Assembly: GCA_039027955.1 (NCBI GenBank)
Contig: JBCCJD010000003.1
Coordinates: 1,627-65,626 of the forward strand
DNA from: Pseudomonadota bacterium
GTDB lineage: Bacteria > Pseudomonadota > Alphaproteobacteria > Sphingomonadales > Sphingomonadaceae
Reading direction: 5' to 3'
DNA: 64,000 bases
Below, piece after piece: positions 7,057 through 12,268 of the stretch. The position numbers were made by a program, and so were the translations under genes. Each line of letters starts with the position of its first letter. Positions within the stretch are counted from its first letter, which is position 1. The notes below the pieces were generated by a model that did not search any database, was not told where the DNA came from, and saw only the letters and a list, made by a program, of their open reading frames with translations.

Positions 7057-7695
7057 ATGAACAATTCGGCAAACATTTTTCAAGCGGACGCAGAGCATGA
7101 AAGCGCTCCGGAATCTCGCGGCTCTCCGCGTTTCACTCTGCTGATCCGCGCCGCCAAGCTCGTTACCAAGCAAGGCGAATTCGTCTGTGTGATCCGCGAC
7201 GTCTCCGAATCGGGCATCAGTGTGCGCCTGTTTCACGCTCTGCCCGACGAGCCGCAGATCGAGCTGCAAATGCCTGGCGGCGGCAGGTACGAAATCCAGC
7301 CTGTGCGAACGCAAGCGAACGAAGCGGCGTTCGAATTCACTCAGCAGGTCGATGTCGCACGGTTGATCCACGAAGCCAGCGAATATCCCAAGCGGGGCCT
7401 TCGTTTAGAGGTGTACTTTCCAATCACCATCACGATGGCGGGCCAGCGCTACGAAGGGATCATCGAAAATCTCTCTCAACAAGGCGCTCGATTTGAATGC
7501 GAACAATTGTTTGCGATCGATCAAAGTTTGATGATCGAAGGAGCGGAAAGCTCGGTCGGGTTCCGCGAAGTCCGAGCCAAAGTGCGTTGGCGGCGTGACC
7601 GGCATTATGGCGTGGTGTTCGATGATACCTTCACGTTAGGTGATTTTGCGAGGTTGGTGGCGCGGCTGCAATCGCCGATCTTGCTCGATGACTGA
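7057..7695 (+). CDS. Tandem PilZ-domain protein
   Basis: RGSPR (RxxxR) plus DVSESG (DxSxxG) in domain 1; KRGLR plus NLSQQG in domain 2; ends in VRWRRDRHYGVVF. Confidence 0.85.
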   Translation: MNNSANIFQADAEHESAPESRGSPRFTLLIRAAKLVTKQGEFVCVIRDVSESGISVRLFHALPDEPQIELQMPGGGRYEIQPVRTQANEAAFEFTQQVDVARLIHEASEYPKRGLRLEVYFPITITMAGQRYEGIIENLSQQGARFECEQLFAIDQSLMIEGAESSVGFREVRAKVRWRRDRHYGVVFDDTFTLGDFARLVARLQSPILLDD

Positions 7696-7854
7696 GCAGC
7701 GCGCAGCCCTCGGGCTGAGCCCAACGCGGTTCAAACGCAGAAAAACCTACGATTTGAGCCTGCGCTTTTACGCTTCGCTAACCAATTTCCTTCACCTGCG
7801 AAGGCAAGCCGGTGCGCGCCTCACGCGGACCGGAAAGATCTCATGGGGGCTTTA

Positions 7855-9510
7855 ATGACGCAGCTTGATGCGGGACAGAACTTCTTAAGCCAAACTGGAA
7901 TTGTCGATGTCGATGTTGCGATCATCGGCGCTGGACCTGCCGGGCTGACCGCTGGCTATCTCCTCACCAAGCAAGGCAAATCCGTCGCGATTATCGAACA
8001 GGACGAAACCTATGTTGGCGGCATCAGCCGCACAGTCGAACACAAGGGCTATCGCTTCGACATTGGCGGCCACCGTTTCTTCTCGAAATCGCAAGCCGTG
8101 GTCGATCTGTGGAATGAAATCCTGCCGGACGACTTCATCCAGCGCCCGCGGATGAGCCGCATCTATTATGAAGGCAAGTTCTACAGCTACCCGCTGCGCG
8201 CATTCGAAGCTCTCTCGAACCTTGGCATCTTGCGTTCGACCGCCTGCATGGCGAGCTATCTGCGCTATAAGCTGTTCCCGATCAAAGATGTGAAGAGCTT
8301 TGAGGACTGGACCACCAATCAATTCGGCAAAAAGCTCTATTCGATCTTCTTCAAGACCTACACTGAGAAGGTCTGGGGCATGCCCTGCGACGAGATGAGT
8401 GCCGATTGGGCCGCGCAGCGCATCAAGGGCCTCTCGCTGTGGGGCGCTGTCACCGATGGGTTGAAGCGTAGCCTTGGCCTCAACAAAAAGCCCAATGACG
8501 GTCAGGCGGTGAAGACACTGCTTGAGACCTTCCGCTATCCCCGGCTTGGGCCAGGCATGATGTGGGATGCGGCACGCGACAAGATCATTGCGACCGGCAA
8601 AGGCCAGGTGTTCATGGGTCATGCGCTCGAACAGCTTGCCGCGATTGGCCCGAATGACGAAGGCTACAATTGGTCGATGACCGCTGCTGGCAAGACCGGT
8701 AAAGTCCAAATCCGCGCCAAGGATGCGATCAGTTCGGCCCCGATGCGTGAGCTTTCCAAGCGTATCTATCCGCTGCCGCAAAGCACTTTGCAGGCTGGTA
8801 ATCTTAGATACCGCGATTTTCTGACAGTTGCGCTGATGGTCAAATCCGAAGATCTCTTCCCCGATAACTGGATCTACATCCACGATGACCGGGTGCAGGT
8901 TGGCCGCGTGCAGAATTTCCGCAGCTGGTCGCCGGAAATGGTTCCGGATGAGGATATGGCTTGCGTCGGCCTTGAATACTTCTGCTTTGAAGGCGACGGC
9001 CTGTGGTCTTCCTCAGATGAGGACTTGGTTGCGCAAGCGACGAAGGAAATGGAAATCTTGGGGCTGTGTGATCCCAAAATGGTCGTGAGCGGCGCGGTGG
9101 TCCGTCAGGAAAAGGCCTATCCGGTCTATGACGACGATTACGAAGCTAATGTTCAGGCGATGCGGGTCGAACTCGAAGACAAGCACCCGAGCCTTCATCT
9201 GGTCGGGCGCAACGGCATGCACCGCTACAACAATCAGGATCACGCGATGATGACTGCGATGCTGACGGTTGAGAACATTCTCGCAGGCGAGCGGGTCTAC
9301 GACACCTGGTGTGTCAACGAAGACGCGGAATACCACGAAGCAGGTGACGAAGGCGCTGACACCACAATCGCAGCACGCGAACCCGGCACAGTACCGCAGG
9401 CTAAGCCGCTGAGCGAGGATCAGGTGGCTGCGCTGACATCACTTCGCGGAGTGCCTGAGCGGGTCAAGCCGGACGAGGCTGAAGATGCGCCGGTGCGCAA
9501 GTCGGCCTGA
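7855..9510 (+). CDS. FAD-dependent oxidoreductase, UDP-galactopyranose-mutase-like
   Basis: GAGPAGLTA dinucleotide motif, GGHRFFSK, GRNGMHRYNNQDH. Start at ATG 7855 after GGGGG; the ORF track starts at 7843. Confidence 0.8.
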   Translation: MTQLDAGQNFLSQTGIVDVDVAIIGAGPAGLTAGYLLTKQGKSVAIIEQDETYVGGISRTVEHKGYRFDIGGHRFFSKSQAVVDLWNEILPDDFIQRPRMSRIYYEGKFYSYPLRAFEALSNLGILRSTACMASYLRYKLFPIKDVKSFEDWTTNQFGKKLYSIFFKTYTEKVWGMPCDEMSADWAAQRIKGLSLWGAVTDGLKRSLGLNKKPNDGQAVKTLLETFRYPRLGPGMMWDAARDKIIATGKGQVFMGHALEQLAAIGPNDEGYNWSMTAAGKTGKVQIRAKDAISSAPMRELSKRIYPLPQSTLQAGNLRYRDFLTVALMVKSEDLFPDNWIYIHDDRVQVGRVQNFRSWSPEMVPDEDMACVGLEYFCFEGDGLWSSSDEDLVAQATKEMEILGLCDPKMVVSGAVVRQEKAYPVYDDDYEANVQAMRVELEDKHPSLHLVGRNGMHRYNNQDHAMMTAMLTVENILAGERVYDTWCVNEDAEYHEAGDEGADTTIAAREPGTVPQAKPLSEDQVAALTSLRGVPERVKPDEAEDAPVRKSA

Positions 9511-9551
9511 TCGCGCGTAGCGCGGCGATCCGCACAGCCGAGAGAGTGTTC

Positions 9552-9980
9552 ATGAACGGCCCCATCGCTTCGATCCTCATCAGACTGCGCGATTTTCAGC
9601 TCGCGCGCTATGTGCTTGCAAGTGTTGGCGCGTTGGCGGTGGATGTCGGCTCGTTTCTGGCATTTATGGCGTTGGGAGTCGCGGCCGCCCCGGCTTCGGC
9701 GATGGGCTATTCGCTCGGTATCCTCGCCCATTGGCTGTTATCGAGCCGCGCGGTGTTTCACGAAAGCGTCGCAAGTGGCGGGATGGCGCGCACCCGGCAA
9801 AAGGCTCTGTTTGTGATTTCGGCGCTGATCGGGCTGGGTTTGACGACAGCGATTGTCGGGCTCGGCGTATGGGCTGGTAGCGATCCTCGCGCGGCCAAGG
9901 CAGTTGCGATCGTAATCAGTTTCACAGTGACGTGGCTTATTCGCAGCCGGATCGTATTTCGCGCTCAGGAAAGTCGCTGA
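9552..9980 (+). CDS. GtrA-family four-TM flippase-like protein
   Basis: RYVLASVGALAVDVGSF, four hydrophobic helices, terminal SRIVFR. Confidence 0.88.
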   Translation: MNGPIASILIRLRDFQLARYVLASVGALAVDVGSFLAFMALGVAAAPASAMGYSLGILAHWLLSSRAVFHESVASGGMARTRQKALFVISALIGLGLTTAIVGLGVWAGSDPRAAKAVAIVISFTVTWLIRSRIVFRAQESR

Positions 9981-9984
9981 GCTC

Positions 9985-11781
9985 ATGCTGCACGAACGCC
10001 GCCGTTCCCCCTTTCCGGCAGATCTGCTGATCCGGGTCGGAATTGCGTGGGTGCTGGTTACGCTCATGTTGGTGGCCGTCCATGCGATGAATGTCCCAAC
10101 CTATCGCTCGATGGGGCCTGATGACATGCTCCGGCTGGTCCAGGTGCGCGATCTGGTCGAAGGACAGGGCTGGTTCGATTTGCGGCAAACCCGCCTTGAT
10201 GCGACTAATGGCGGCGTGCCGATGCATTGGTCGCGCCTCGTTGATATCCCACTTGTGCTGATGATTTTAGCGCTCACGCCTATCCTTGGAGCCGGCGCAG
10301 CGGAAGTCGCGGCAGTGATGATTGTGCCACTGGTGACACTTGGGATTGCGCTCCTTTTGACGGCGCGGATTGCTTCGCGCCTGCTGGGCGATGAGGAAGT
10401 GACGCTCACATGCCTGATCTTCGCGCTCAGCATCCCGGTGCTGTTTCAGCTCGGCCCGATGCGGATCGATCATCACGGCTGGCAGATCGTCTGCGTGCTG
10501 GCGGCGATGAACGGCCTGATGGCGCGCTCGCCTCGTCTCGGAGGCTTGATTATCGGCGCGGCTATGGCGAATTGGCTGGCGATCTCGATCGAAGGGTTGC
10601 CGATGGCGGTGGCGTTCTTCGCGGTGTTGGCGTTTCGCTGGCTGCGCGATCGCGGCGACCGGGTCTATCTTCAAAGCGCCATTCAATCGCTCGCTGTGAT
10701 GAGCGCGGTATTTTTCGTCGCGACGCGAGGCTTTTCTGACCTTGCCAGCCATTGCGATGCGATCAGCCCGATACACTTGGCCCTGTTCGGATGGGGTGCA
10801 CTCGTGCTGACCATTCTGGCCCGGCTTGAGCCGATCCCGCGCGGCCTGGTGCTTGCGGGTTTCGCAGTTGCTGGAGGCGGAGCGCTTGGCATGATGCTGT
10901 TTTCGGCGCCGCAATGCGTGACCGGCGGGGGCTTTGCCGAACTTGATCCGCTGGTGGCTGAATTCTGGCACGCTAATGTCGATGAAGGGATGCCGATCTG
11001 GCAGCAGGAGCTCAAGATCGCGCTTCAGTTCGGCGTCACGCCCGCATTCGGCTTGTTCGCTGCGATCAATCTTGCCGCGCGATCACGCGATTGGTTGCGC
11101 CGGTTCTGGAGCGACTATGCGATCCTGTTGGCTGCCGCCTTTGTGACATCGCTGCTGGTGGCGCGCGCTGGTGCAGTCGCGTGCGTGCTCGCAGCTCCTC
11201 CGCTGGCGTGGCAAGTGCGCAGCTGGCTGCGCGCTATTCGGTTGATGGATCAGCCTTGGCGGCGCGCGTCAGCCATGCTCGGCGTTGCCTGCGCGCTGTT
11301 GCCGGTATTACCGCTGACTTTTCTCACAAGCGCACAAAAGGCGCAGGCCGCTTTTGGTGGGCCAGCGGTCGCGCCGGAACCCAAACGAGTATCCGATTGC
11401 CGGATTGCCGAAACGGCGTTGCTGCTCAAAGACTTGCCGCCGGGCGAGATGTATGCGCCGCTCGATCTTGCGCCGCGGCTGTTGCTGGCGACCCCCCATC
11501 GCTTGATTGCATCAGGCCACCATCGTGGGAGCGATGCAATGCGGCTGGTCATCGAAATCGCGGTGGGTTCGCCTGACGATGCGCGGCAGATCCTGTCGGA
11601 TCGCGGCACGCGGTACGTTGCAGTCTGCACAGACCTAGGTGAGCCAGCCTTGTATCAGCAGTCAGCGCCTGACGGCTTCATGGCTCGATTGATTGCGGAC
11701 GAACCTCAGCTTGATTGGCTTGAACCCCTCCCGGTTGCGCCCGGAAGCACGCTTAGGGCCTGGCGCATCAAGCCGGAATAA
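9985..11781 (+). CDS. Multi-TM membrane protein, probable GT-C glycosyltransferase (STT3/AglB-like topology)
   Basis: GPDDMLRLVQV after TM1, RIDHH loop motif, roughly a dozen TM segments, soluble C-terminal domain ending ...ARQILSDRGTRYVAVC; starts 4 nt after gtrA. Confidence 0.7.
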   Translation: MLHERRRSPFPADLLIRVGIAWVLVTLMLVAVHAMNVPTYRSMGPDDMLRLVQVRDLVEGQGWFDLRQTRLDATNGGVPMHWSRLVDIPLVLMILALTPILGAGAAEVAAVMIVPLVTLGIALLLTARIASRLLGDEEVTLTCLIFALSIPVLFQLGPMRIDHHGWQIVCVLAAMNGLMARSPRLGGLIIGAAMANWLAISIEGLPMAVAFFAVLAFRWLRDRGDRVYLQSAIQSLAVMSAVFFVATRGFSDLASHCDAISPIHLALFGWGALVLTILARLEPIPRGLVLAGFAVAGGGALGMMLFSAPQCVTGGGFAELDPLVAEFWHANVDEGMPIWQQELKIALQFGVTPAFGLFAAINLAARSRDWLRRFWSDYAILLAAAFVTSLLVARAGAVACVLAAPPLAWQVRSWLRAIRLMDQPWRRASAMLGVACALLPVLPLTFLTSAQKAQAAFGGPAVAPEPKRVSDCRIAETALLLKDLPPGEMYAPLDLAPRLLLATPHRLIASGHHRGSDAMRLVIEIAVGSPDDARQILSDRGTRYVAVCTDLGEPALYQQSAPDGFMARLIADEPQLDWLEPLPVAPGSTLRAWRIKPE

Positions 11782-12268
11782 AGTCGAGCGCGACCCCATT
11801 AATGCAGTGCCGTTTGCCAGTGGGGCGTGGACCGTCACCGAAGATGTGTCCGAGATGTCCGCCGCAATCGGCACAATGCACTTCAGTGCGCGGGATGCCG
11901 ATCTTGTAGTCCGTGCTGGTGCCGACAGCGCCTTTGTCGATCGCCTGGTAAAAGCTCGGCCATCCGGTTCCGCTGTCGTATTTGTGGGTAGAGGAATAAA
12001 GCCGGTTGCCGCAGCCTGCGCAGACAAACACGCCTTTGCGCTTTTCTTCATTGAGCGGCGAAGTGTACGCGCGTTCAGTGCCGGCTTGGCGCAGCACATA
12101 GAACTCAGACTTTGTCAGTTTTTTGCGCCATTGGCTTTCGGTCTTGCTGATGCGAAAGCTCTTTTTTGCTTGAGCGGGTTCAGCCCCGCAGGCGCCGAGT
12201 ATCGGAGCAGCGGCACTAAGGCCGAGCAAACCAAGAAACGAGCGACGAGGGGTAAAGCGAAAAATCAC
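11768..12268 (-). CDS. msrB: Peptide-methionine (R)-S-oxide reductase MsrB with twin-arginine signal
   Basis: GTERAYT, CAGC...CADC zinc ligands, SGTGWPSF, GHLGHIF, RHCING; N-terminal RRSFL. Confidence 0.95.
   Translation of the reverse strand: MIFRFTPRRSFLGLLGLSAAAPILGACGAEPAQAKKSFRISKTESQWRKKLTKSEFYVLRQAGTERAYTSPLNEEKRKGVFVCAGCGNRLYSSTHKYDSGTGWPSFYQAIDKGAVGTSTDYKIGIPRTEVHCADCGGHLGHIFGDGPRPTGKRHCINGVALDFIPA

Follow-up and report, generated by a model that had tools for sequence, protein, structure and literature searches.

The window, a stretch of 64,000 nucleotides from an Erythrobacter-type member of the Sphingomonadaceae, contains three co-oriented genes that encode a flavoprotein resembling UDP-galactopyranose mutase (UGM), a GtrA-family protein and a membrane protein of the GT-C type. 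No published description of this operon was found in the literature. The genes and the region preceding them are arranged as follows.

7696..7842, + strand: intergenic region of 147 nucleotides after a PilZ gene, presumed to hold the operon promoter
7843..9510, + strand: flavoprotein gene, 555 amino acids, with an alternative start at 7855
9552..9980, + strand: gtrA, 142 amino acids, about four TM helices by hydropathy scan
9985..11781, + strand: GT-C gene, 598 amino acids, 4 nucleotides after gtrA and with GGAAAG upstream

The open reading frames recover the gaps of 41 and 4 nucleotides described in the original prediction, and the shorter of the two suggests translational coupling between gtrA and the GT-C gene. 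Position 7855 is the second in-frame ATG of the flavoprotein frame, with a plausible ribosome-binding site at both 7843 and 7855, and the gtrA frame opens at a GTG at 9546 while the ATG at 9552 stands behind GAGAGAG; the gap of 41 nucleotides follows from a start at this ATG. No match to the sigma-70 consensus was detected in the intergenic region, and internal terminators do not rise above shuffle expectation in the operon, the end of which is overlapped by 14 nucleotides by a convergent msrB gene. The assignment of the three genes is far beyond chance, with 914 bits for the flavoprotein against NF005545 (cut-off 451), which places it in the PRK07208.1-1 family, 6.3e-15 for the second protein against PF04138 (GtrA_DPMS_TM), in agreement with its original identification as GtrA, and 3231 representatives at 50% clustering (E<=1e-3) for relatives of the third, which has no Pfam or NCBIfam match. 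The cluster holds no GT2 gene, the absence of which had been remarked on from the start.

By both sequence and fold, the closest solved relatives of the flavoprotein are the eukaryote-type UGMs (A. fumigatus UgmA, T. cruzi, L. major; EC 5.4.99.9), with an identity of only about 22%. The single sequence finds AfUGM in the PDB at an E-value of 1e-23, and the family profile A2 matches it over nearly the full length at 1e-55, compared to 4e-17 for protoporphyrinogen oxidase (PPO) with the same profile. The AF2 model (pLDDT 82) matches AfUGM in Foldseek with an E-value of 1e-34 and a TMt of 0.78, and T. cruzi UGM with a TMt of 0.83-0.84; PPO is the second-best fold class, at about 1e-25. The description as UGM-like is thus borne out, a HemY- or CrtI-like protein was rejected on the same profile and Foldseek values, and DprE1 is absent among the matches listed. 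The residues in question are distributed along the gene as follows.

8065..8085, + strand: GGHRFFS (amino acids 75-81), the 'histidine loop', aligned to DVGGHVIFS of AfUGM; H77, equivalent to AfUGM H63, is invariant in A2
8410..8430, + strand: AAQRIKG, in which R193 aligns with the flap arginine R182 of AfUGM and is invariant in A2
8866..8934, + strand: NWIYIH...VGRVQNFRSWSP, in which W343, Y345 and R355 correspond to AfUGM W315, Y317 and R327 (profile alignment to 3uka); the arginine is invariant in A2
9112..9243, + strand: KAYPVY ... GRNGMHRYNNQDH, in which Y426, R456, Y462 and N464 align with AfUGM Y419, R447, Y453 and N457; Y426, R456 and Y462 are invariant in A2
9442..9465, + strand: LRGVPERV, a family-specific C-terminal tail motif (consensus R-x-VP-x-RV) behind a disordered acidic linker

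The GGHRFFS and NQDH motifs (the latter within NNQDH at amino acids 463-467) that had first drawn attention to UGM are both present. Positions equivalent to AfUGM H63, R182, R327, Y419, R447 and Y453 are invariant throughout the family, even in members of 24-27% identity, and the equivalents of W315, Y317 and N457 are also retained in the window flavoprotein. AfUGM entries among the fold matches carry the mutations H63A, R182K, R327A/K and Y317A, and the paired arginines and tyrosines are presumed to bind the diphosphate in AfUGM. The uridine pocket differs, with R, T, L and W/F in place of AfUGM Q107, N163, F106 and Y334, respectively (the last being W362 in the alignment to 3uka), and for this reason the nucleotide or the sugar may not be that of UDP-Gal. 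Unlike the eukaryotic enzymes, the flavoprotein has a longer, poorly modelled flap region, is encoded beside membrane glycosylation genes and carries the additional C-terminal tail, which to our knowledge is absent from AfUGM; its mutase activity is predicted. The tail motif is kept in 85 aligned tails from several families, is modelled with a pLDDT below 50 and is extended in one relative (L141) by two to three TM helices, which hints at an association with the membrane.

The AF2 model of the third protein (pLDDT 95.7, pTM 0.94) and a hydropathy scan agree on approximately 13-15 TM helices followed by about 125 amino acids of soluble C-terminal domain, which bears out the many TMs and the soluble domain of the original prediction. 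Its best structural matches in Foldseek extend over the full length and are STT3A/B, AglB and yeast STT3 (CAZy GT66; E 3e-10 to 1e-7, TMq 0.57-0.67), followed by the C-mannosyltransferase DPY19 (GT98; E 5e-7, TMq 0.59-0.60) and then PglB, in line with its prediction as a GT-C enzyme. The C-terminal domain gives a weak hmmsearch match with profile A1 to the AglB-S domains of the short A. fulgidus AglB paralogues (E 0.028 for 3vgp and 0.093 for 3vu0) that places APLDxGP on WWDYG, and it is probably homologous to them. In the TM region, no resemblance to STT3 or AglB was detected at the sequence level, so that the catalytic equivalences listed below draw on fold, motif identity and position.

10114..10125, + strand: GPDD (amino acids 44-47) in the first periplasmic loop, by position the candidate first 'DXD' motif (D46, D47)
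10462..10476, + strand: RIDHH (amino acids 160-164), by conservation and likeness to AfAglB the candidate second 'DXD' metal-binding motif (D162, H163, H164)
10981..11001, + strand: DEGMPIW, with the invariant E334, in the long periplasmic loop that follows TM10
11164..11166, + strand: R394, an invariant residue where a TM helix begins
11455..11529, + strand: APLDLAP ... GHHRG in the soluble C-terminal domain, with APLDxGP in the place of WWDYG

Charged residues of the periplasmic loops are invariant, among them D46, R160, D162, H163 and H164, while D47, D494, P497, H513 and R514 are at least 90% conserved. In AfAglB the first motif reads G-N-D47 and the metal-binding second motif is Asp161-His-His163, identical to the D-H-H found here, so the comparison with archaeal AglB made in the original prediction is literally right (PMC8342417). 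E334 is a candidate equivalent, by position alone, of the glutamate in the TIXE/SVSE motif of EL5. R394 is a candidate ligand of the lipid phosphate by analogy to PglB R375 and AglB R426. The protein contains no 'WW' anywhere and hence no WWDYG, and the replacement of this Ser/Thr-binding motif by APLDxGP implies an acceptor other than a classical N-X-S/T sequon.

In addition to the lack of WWDYG, a recognisable DK/MI motif and pgl- or agl-type assembly genes nearby, the GT-C protein differs from the oligosaccharyltransferases in its partners (GtrA with a GT2 or the flavoprotein), and such partners suggest a monosaccharide-P-lipid donor as opposed to a PP-linked oligosaccharide. The donor of euryarchaeal AglB is also monophosphate-linked. 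The closest functional analogy is DPY19, which combines a polyprenyl-monophosphate monosaccharide donor with a protein acceptor; however, this enzyme is found in eukaryotes, where it modifies Trp within WxxW at the expense of Dol-P-Man, and no sequence similarity between the two was detected. Like the three-component systems GtrA/GtrB/GtrV of Shigella and Salmonella phages, CsbB/GtcA/YfhO and ArnC/ArnEF/ArnT, the operon combines a GtrA-family protein with a GT-C enzyme, but this enzyme belongs with STT3/AglB and not with GtrV, YfhO or ArnT, and a UGM-like flavoprotein takes the place of the GT2 loader. Pentofuranose systems, namely Citrobacter ORF15/ORF14/ORF12 (GT136; Kelly et al. 2024, PMC11127046) and the mycobacterial DPA pathway with Rv3789 (GtrA family), Emb and Aft, share the concept of a polyprenyl-phosphate furanose that is delivered to an extracytoplasmic GT-C enzyme and altered by an auxiliary enzyme. 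These pathways start from PRPP via a UbiA-type synthase and employ epimerases (DprE1/E2, ORF13), whereas the operon has no PRPP transferase and its auxiliary enzyme would be a flavin ring mutase, suggestive of a hexofuranose.

The genes are co-conserved, as a survey of synteny had been expected to reveal. The order flavoprotein, gtrA, GT-C is kept in most of 80 Sphingomonadales loci, with the flavoprotein directly upstream of the GT-C gene in the same orientation in 75, mostly with gtrA between them; 73 of 80 related loci include gtrA, and it is missing from some minimal pairs of flavoprotein and GT-C genes (L130, L155, L156). The linkage extends to other alphaproteobacterial families (f3, f7, f8), where the two genes are adjacent, divergent or within 8 kb in varied arrangements. 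Of 401 sampled genomes, 47 are GT-C-positive, and 21 of these encode the flavoprotein as well; Caulobacter, too, has the flavoprotein. An operon from another class (L144) joins an unannotated 658-aa membrane protein, GtrA, the flavoprotein and an SDR epimerase (Pfam Epimerase family) with a GalE-like N-terminus. What is new is that GT-C orthologues without the flavoprotein adjoin a GtrB-like GT2, often together with GtrA in the canonical three-component layout, which supports a lipid-monophosphate donor, while flavoprotein-linked ones almost never do: a GT2 lies within 6 kb of 11/24 of the former and 2/90 of the latter, in a statistic that ignores phylogeny and gives p = 0.036 in the genome-sample subset. 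The missing GT2 is a systematic trait of flavoprotein-linked loci and not an accident of the source genome. The latter has galE (411 bits, cut-off 262), no classical Glf and none of the GT2 type that partners the GT-C protein elsewhere; of its only two PF00535 genes, one encodes a DPMS-like fusion that has a PMT-family GT-C of its own as partner, and the other, located on a short contig, adjoins a Wzx-like polysaccharide-synthesis gene. Five genomes (G320, G356, G281, G386, G164) encode the flavoprotein and the GT-C protein with neither candidate polyprenyl-P GT2 type, and in G320, which is rated complete, the single GT2 gene adjoins a Wzx-type polysaccharide-synthesis gene, such that some complete operon-bearing genomes are without an evident loader.

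A rather unlikely alternative is that the flavoprotein itself replaces the GtrB-type GT2. The flavin N5 would displace UDP, the ring would contract and polyprenyl phosphate would attack the flavin-sugar adduct in UDP's stead to give polyprenyl-P-furanose, with GtrA serving as a lipid-binding partner, as in DPMS-type GT2-GtrA fusions, and the AglB-like GT-C enzyme using the donor. The near-exclusivity of GT2 and flavoprotein and the five genomes, including the lone GT2 of G320, agree with this, as does the exchange between sister loci, L129 having a GT2 divergent from the GT-C gene and L130 the flavoprotein followed by it. The flavoprotein and gtrA are moreover closely coupled (the 41-nt gap here, a 4-nt overlap in L144, gtrA followed by the flavoprotein gene in L132), the conserved tail is TM-fused in L141, and the chemistry would be the last step of UGM with another phosphate nucleophile. 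However, the reaction is without precedent, L153 (and L047) hold both a GT2 and the flavoprotein, all diphosphate-binding residues of UGM are kept, as an ordinary NDP-sugar mutase should have them, a loader may exist that is unlinked or not a GT2, and the exclusivity is phylogenetically uncorrected.

Improbable, too, is a mutase that converts a polyprenyl-P-hexopyranose to the furanose on the cytoplasmic face before it is flipped and used by the GT-C enzyme, the substrate being a housekeeping one, such as the product of the DPMS-like enzyme encoded on contig C58. A GT2+GtrA_DPMS_TM enzyme is indeed encoded elsewhere in the source genome and in most relatives, the flavoprotein shows hints of membrane association, and modification after loading has precedents in DprE1/DprE2 acting on decaprenyl-P-ribose and ORF13 on undP-Ribf (PMC11127046), but the DPMS-type enzyme is absent from the same five genomes, the conserved paired arginines and tyrosines suit a diphosphate rather than a monophosphate, and a polyprenol phosphomonoester leaves less readily than UDP. 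The generic Amino_oxidase and NAD_binding_8 domains, which are the only Pfam matches of the flavoprotein above threshold, and the second rank of PPO would be compatible with a sugar or lipid-carrier oxidase/reductase of the amine-oxidase, PPO or CrtI superfamily, for instance one by which polyprenol would be saturated to the kind of dolichol-like carrier that fits an AglB-type enzyme. Carriers of AglB and STT3 are normally of the dolichol type. This role is highly improbable, since the lead of UGM over PPO amounts to about 40 orders of magnitude with the profile and about 9 with Foldseek, and the UGM-specific histidine loop and the substrate-binding Arg and Tyr are invariant. Finally, the flanking msrB, P450 and ABC-2 transporter genes are conserved as well, as might be expected if three genes without a joint function were kept together by shared Sphingomonadales ancestry; this is hardly credible given that the linkage persists in other families despite altered order and orientation, that the operon survives insertions (a sulfatase-family gene, tandem GT-C copies) and that the 4-nt gap points to translational coupling.

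The interpretation that we favour, at about even confidence, is an extracytoplasmic furanosylation module that consists of a UGM-type mutase, an external loader, GtrA and an AglB/STT3-like GT-C enzyme. In the cytoplasm, the flavoprotein would contract a nucleotide-activated pyranose to a furanose by UGM-type reduced-flavin chemistry, most likely UDP-Galp to UDP-Galf because galE is present and classical glf is not. An enzyme encoded outside the operon would then load the furanose onto polyprenyl phosphate; we know of no polyprenyl-phosphate-galactofuranose donor that has been described, and literature searches found none. GtrA may aid the lipid-linked sugar in reaching or crossing the membrane, where the GT-C enzyme would move it to a periplasmic acceptor by means of a putative metal-dependent site composed of D46/D47, D162-H163-H164 and E334. 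A protein is a plausible acceptor, and a glycan or glycolipid may serve instead. The probable role of the module is to transfer an unusual sugar with a five-membered ring to a target outside the cytoplasm.

The operon belongs to an Erythrobacter-like member of the Sphingomonadales, and the closest relatives of its GT-C protein are found in Erythrobacter, Porphyrobacter and Qipengyuania. It consists of three co-oriented genes which encode, in this order, a flavoprotein resembling UDP-galactopyranose mutase (UGM), a small GtrA-family membrane protein and a 598-aa AglB/STT3-like GT-C protein:

7843-9510, plus strand: flavoprotein open reading frame, co-oriented
9546/9552-9980, plus strand: gtrA open reading frame, ATG at 9552 preceded by GAGAGAG
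9985-11781, plus strand: GT-C gene, encoding the 598-aa protein

The gaps of 41 and 4 nucleotides in the original prediction are reproduced when gtrA starts at the ATG at 9552, and the motifs listed there, GGHRFFS, NNQDH (quoted as NQDH), GPDD and RIDHH (quoted as DHH), are all found in the translated proteins. The product of the middle gene matches PF04138 (6.3e-15) and has about four hydrophobic segments. A scan for promoters and terminators gave no signal exceeding the shuffle expectation. Directly upstream and co-oriented, 147 nucleotides from the operon, lies a gene for a PilZ-domain protein (7057-7695), as is also the case in the related locus L055, and the GT-C orthologue in locus L118 adjoins a GGDEF-EAL gene. 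These neighbours make a link to c-di-GMP possible, although they are not kept outside the Erythrobacteraceae; because the PilZ linkage is limited to this family, the c-di-GMP link was dropped. Downstream, msrB (SelR; 11768-12268, minus strand) is convergent with the GT-C gene and overlaps its 3' end by 14 nucleotides. The N-terminus of MsrB is an export-type signal (RRSFLGLLG...AC), and the block of msrB, P450 and ABC-2 genes is kept across the Sphingomonadales.

The grouping of the three genes is upheld by a synteny survey, the check that had been proposed for it. Of the 80 top-ranking genomic loci, nearly all from Sphingomonadales, 75 have the flavoprotein gene directly upstream of the GT-C gene and co-oriented with it, with gtrA between them in most of the 75, and the exceptions are mostly contig ends or second GT-C copies. 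Identity across the loci is 72-90% for the flavoprotein versus 34-61% for the GT-C protein. Of 401 evenly sampled Pseudomonadota genomes, 47 have the GT-C family, 33 the flavoprotein and 21 both. Caulobacter vibrioides is among the species with the flavoprotein. Outside the Sphingomonadales, the flavoprotein and GT-C genes are divergently oriented in L155, directly next to each other in L130 and L156 and within 2-3 kb of each other in L152-L154, and a gtrA-flavoprotein pair is located 8 kb from the GT-C gene in L132; that the two are linked in such differing arrangements argues for function over inherited synteny. In 12 of the 80 loci, a gene for a membrane-anchored sulfatase-family protein (PF00884, about 460 aa) is inserted into the operon, either between gtrA and the GT-C gene or between the flavoprotein gene and gtrA (including L065:5586-6956 and L055:5103-6551). 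From its family we take this protein to be of the LtaS/OpgB/EptA kind; no homologue of it was found in the genome from which the window derives. Four loci (L033, L063, L067 and L078) carry a tandem second GT-C gene, and in genome G320 (locus L157) the order is GT-C2, flavoprotein, gtrA, GT-C1. Orphan GT-C copies, at loci free of both flavoprotein and gtrA, are seen in Novosphingobium MAGs (L045, L054). All three genes also occur at Erythrobacteraceae-like identity on MAG contigs labelled Marinomonas sp. and Cypionkella sp. (L022 and L023), which are probably mis-binned contigs rather than cases of horizontal transfer.

The flavoprotein matches NCBIfam NF005545 (PRK07208.1-1, an unnamed family annotated as 'hypothetical protein') with 914.5 bits, which exceeds the cut-off of 451, and in Pfam it matches generic FAD domains only. 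Among solved structures the UGMs of A. fumigatus and T. cruzi rank first, with E 1e-23 for the single sequence, and a profile of 17 diverse members searched against the PDB gives E 1e-55 for UGM versus 4e-17 for protoporphyrinogen oxidase (PPO). The AF2 model of the flavoprotein (pLDDT 82, with a disordered N-terminus, one disordered flap and the last 60 residues disordered) is likewise matched in Foldseek to the A. fumigatus enzyme (AfUGM; E 1e-34, TMt 0.78) and the T. cruzi enzyme (TcUGM; TMt 0.83-0.84), with PPO and the short bacterial UGMs far behind the eukaryotic UGMs. The comparison of UGM with HemY and DprE1 that had been called for thus favours UGM, and a HemY, CrtI or DprE1 identity was rejected because UGM scores far above PPO and the UGM-specific residues are invariant. 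The protein carries the FAD Rossmann motif GAGPAG and the histidine loop GGHRFFS, the His of which is invariant across the family. Residues H77, R193, W343, Y345, R355, Y426, R456, Y462 and N464 align with H63, R182, W315, Y317, R327, Y419, R447, Y453 and N457 of AfUGM, and the His, Arg and Tyr positions of this set are invariant in the family alignment (A2), including in members that are 24-27% identical. All AfUGM ligands of the substrate diphosphate and sugar (R182, R327, Y419, R447, Y453 and N457) are identical in the window flavoprotein. Of the uridine pocket, AfUGM Y104, F158 and W167 are retained; F106, Q107, N163 and Y334 are not matched, being replaced by L, R, T and W, respectively. 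The roles given to the uridine-pocket residues and to Y334 are those they have in AfUGM, in line with the mutant titles of PDB entries.

A family-specific C-terminal tail (..VNEDAEYHEAG.., a linker and R-x-VP-x-RV; 9442-9465 in the window) is kept across families, the linker ahead of R-x-VP-x-RV being disordered and acidic. In locus L141 (7675-9537, from the lineage of genome G259) the tail runs on into two to three TM helices. Tail and extension together suggest that the flavoprotein acts at the membrane or binds to a partner. The genome that carries the window operon has galE, and a classical glf was not found in it. In other proteobacterial classes PRK07208 flavoproteins adjoin other types of GT-C, either members of the PMT_2 family or membrane proteins of 650 aa that have no annotation (L144 in G151, L142 in G022 and L143 in G042). 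The operon of L144 has the order membrane protein, GtrA, flavoprotein and GalE-like SDR-epimerase, and in L142 the flavoprotein gene is located near GHMP-kinase-like and nucleotidyltransferase-like genes, as judged on their N-terminal sequences only.

By single sequence the GT-C protein has no match in Pfam, NCBIfam or the PDB, and its family comprises 3231 representatives at 50% clustering. The AF2 model, made from an alignment of 135 representatives (pLDDT 95.7, pTM 0.94), consists of about 13 TM helices and a soluble C-terminal domain, which is the architecture of GT66. The first 16 PDB matches of this model in Foldseek are all human STT3A/B, A. fulgidus AglB (AfAglB) or yeast STT3 (E 3e-10 to 3e-7, TMq 0.57-0.67), followed by DPY19 (5e-7), PglB (8e-6) and ArnT (1e-4, TMq 0.34). 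The protein models as a GT-C, as had been expected, and is a divergent AglB/STT3 homologue. The top matches of the family profile in the PDB are weak (E 0.028 and 0.093) and correspond to the C-terminal domains of two short A. fulgidus AglB paralogues. Both of these weak alignments place APLDxGP on WWDYG with the Asp alone retained, and in the DK/MI region of the 3vgp alignment the D-A-A-K of AglB-S1 stands opposite D-V-I-x of the family, which shares the Asp but not the Lys. WWDYG, which in GT66 provides the Ser/Thr pocket for the sequon, is absent, as the 598-aa protein contains no WW dipeptide, and with APLDxGP in place of this motif the protein is, as originally predicted, not a canonical N-oligosaccharyltransferase.

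The invariant or near-invariant residues of the GT-C family are D46, D47, R50, R55, D56, R160, D162, H163, H164, E203, C257, D258, C311, E334 and R394, and most of these residues appear to lie in loops predicted to be extracytoplasmic. In the GPDD motif of the first periplasmic loop D46 is invariant and D47 at least 90% conserved. The RIDHH motif of the second periplasmic loop is invariant, and AfAglB has the identical DHH. The invariant E334 is part of V-x-E-G-x-P-x-W in the long loop after TM10, a sequence which is neither TIXE nor SVSE. The metal ligands of AfAglB are Asp47, from its first DXD motif (G-N-D), together with Asp161 and His163, from a second motif with the sequence Asp-His-His, and Glu360 of TIXE acts via water (PMC8342417), so the likeness of DHH to archaeal AglB was rightly drawn. 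GPD46D47 and D162-H163-H164 appear to match the AfAglB motifs almost to the residue number; the equivalence is positional, because a profile restricted to the TM region (A3) finds only chance matches in the PDB. The protein thus has a catalytic centre that is probably intact and an altered acceptor pocket.

In genomes that lack the flavoprotein, GT-C orthologues usually adjoin a GtrB-like GT2 (PF00535), often followed by GtrA, which is the canonical three-component layout; GT2-adjoining loci are L118-L121, L123, L126, L129, L133-L135 and L137. A GT2 is located within 6 kb of the GT-C gene in 2 of 90 flavoprotein-linked versus 11 of 24 flavoprotein-less cases (Fisher p 2e-7 for all loci and 0.036 for the genome sample alone, values which are not corrected for phylogeny). 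In a quick IQ-TREE tree of the GT-C family, the flavoprotein-linked genes of Sphingomonadales form one clade with a support of 100, and L129, which has a GT2, and L130, which has a flavoprotein, are sisters. The window operon contains no GT2, as the original prediction had it, and neither do its flanks; the locus thus lacks the GtrB-type enzyme of a three-component system. An orthologue of the GT2 that accompanies the GT-C gene elsewhere was not found in the window's genome (G000), which has two PF00535 genes in all. One, on contig C58, encodes a GT2+GtrA_DPMS_TM fusion resembling polyprenyl-phosphate-mannose synthase and is convergent with a PMT-family GT-C gene (PF02366 + PMT_4TMC; G000 C58:12076-14699). 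This pair is unlinked to the operon and looks like a separate protein-O-mannosylation-like system; the C58-type synthase is kept in most sampled relatives, including one genome without the operon. The other, on the short contig C88, adjoins a Wzx-like polysaccharide-synthesis gene. G320, which is rated complete and has the operon, contains a single GT2 beside a Wzx-type gene, and a DPMS-type enzyme was not found in it; neither type of GT2 was found in genomes G356, G281, G386 and G164. The sugar would be loaded either by an unrelated enzyme or by the flavoprotein itself.

The best-supported reading, which we hold to be about evenly balanced between right and wrong, has four steps. The UGM-type mutase would make an NDP-furanose, probably UDP-Galf, which would then be loaded on polyprenyl phosphate; GtrA would escort or flip the lipid-linked sugar, and the AglB-like GT-C would pass it to a periplasmic acceptor other than the N-X-S/T sequon. 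A monophosphate-linked monosaccharide donor is supported by the GT2 and GtrA context of the GT-C orthologues, which argues for a monosaccharide-P-lipid and not for the en bloc transfer of an oligosaccharide to Asn. Since a sulfatase-family gene occasionally sits in the operon, the target may be an envelope molecule that can receive a phospho-substituent as well, be it a protein, a periplasmic glucan or a glycolipid.

The systematic alternation of GT2 loader and flavoprotein raises the question of whether polyprenyl phosphate can be loaded with a sugar by a flavoenzyme. That the flavoprotein itself passes a flavin-bound furanose to this lipid is an improbable rival. Also improbable is the joint reading in which PRK07208 flavoproteins, besides being ring mutases, are flavin-dependent polyprenyl-phosphate furanosyltransferases that transfer the sugar from UDP to the flavin, contract its ring and pass it on to polyprenyl phosphate. 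They would then stand in for the GtrB-type GT2, in a pathway of as few as two or three genes whose AglB/STT3-like partner puts a single furanose on envelope proteins. If true, ordinary alphaproteobacteria would have a relative of N-glycosylation that does not depend on a sequon. An isomerisation of a lipid-linked pyranose by the flavoprotein is given little chance, and a redox enzyme, to be set against the retained sugar and diphosphate ligands, is very unlikely. That the three genes are functionally unrelated is scarcely credible beside their linkage in several arrangements.

Under the four-step reading the operon would work like the GtrA/GtrB/GT-C three-component systems, both GtrA and a GT-C-fold transferase with a predicted periplasmic active site being present, and its mode of action would also recall the pentofuranose systems that act outside the cytoplasm (Kelly et al. 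2024, PMC11127046). It differs from both in having an AglB/STT3-type transferase and in the flavin ring mutase that occupies the usual place of the loader. In its monophosphate-linked monosaccharide donor it would resemble DPY19, for which the donor is Dol-P-Man. Euryarchaeal AglB also uses Dol-P-linked donors. A search of the available literature found no paper on the GT-C family, the operon or bacterial eukaryote-type UGMs. The points new here are that GT2 and flavoprotein alternate, that some genomes have no evident loader, that a sulfatase-family gene can be inserted, that the C-terminal tail is conserved and that DHH matches AfAglB literally. The finding would add a large, unnamed bacterial AglB/STT3-like family (3231 clusters at 50% identity) to the GT-C glycosyltransferases, and would show that the catalytic core of an N-glycosylation enzyme is reused, with another acceptor pocket, in common marine and soil alphaproteobacteria. 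It would also explain what the very large and unnamed family of PRK07208 flavoproteins does, and would indicate a new donor, a lipid-linked hexofuranose, as we know of none described so far. Furanoses are, to our knowledge, absent from mammals, which makes the enzymes that produce and transfer them interesting both as selective targets and for glycoengineering.
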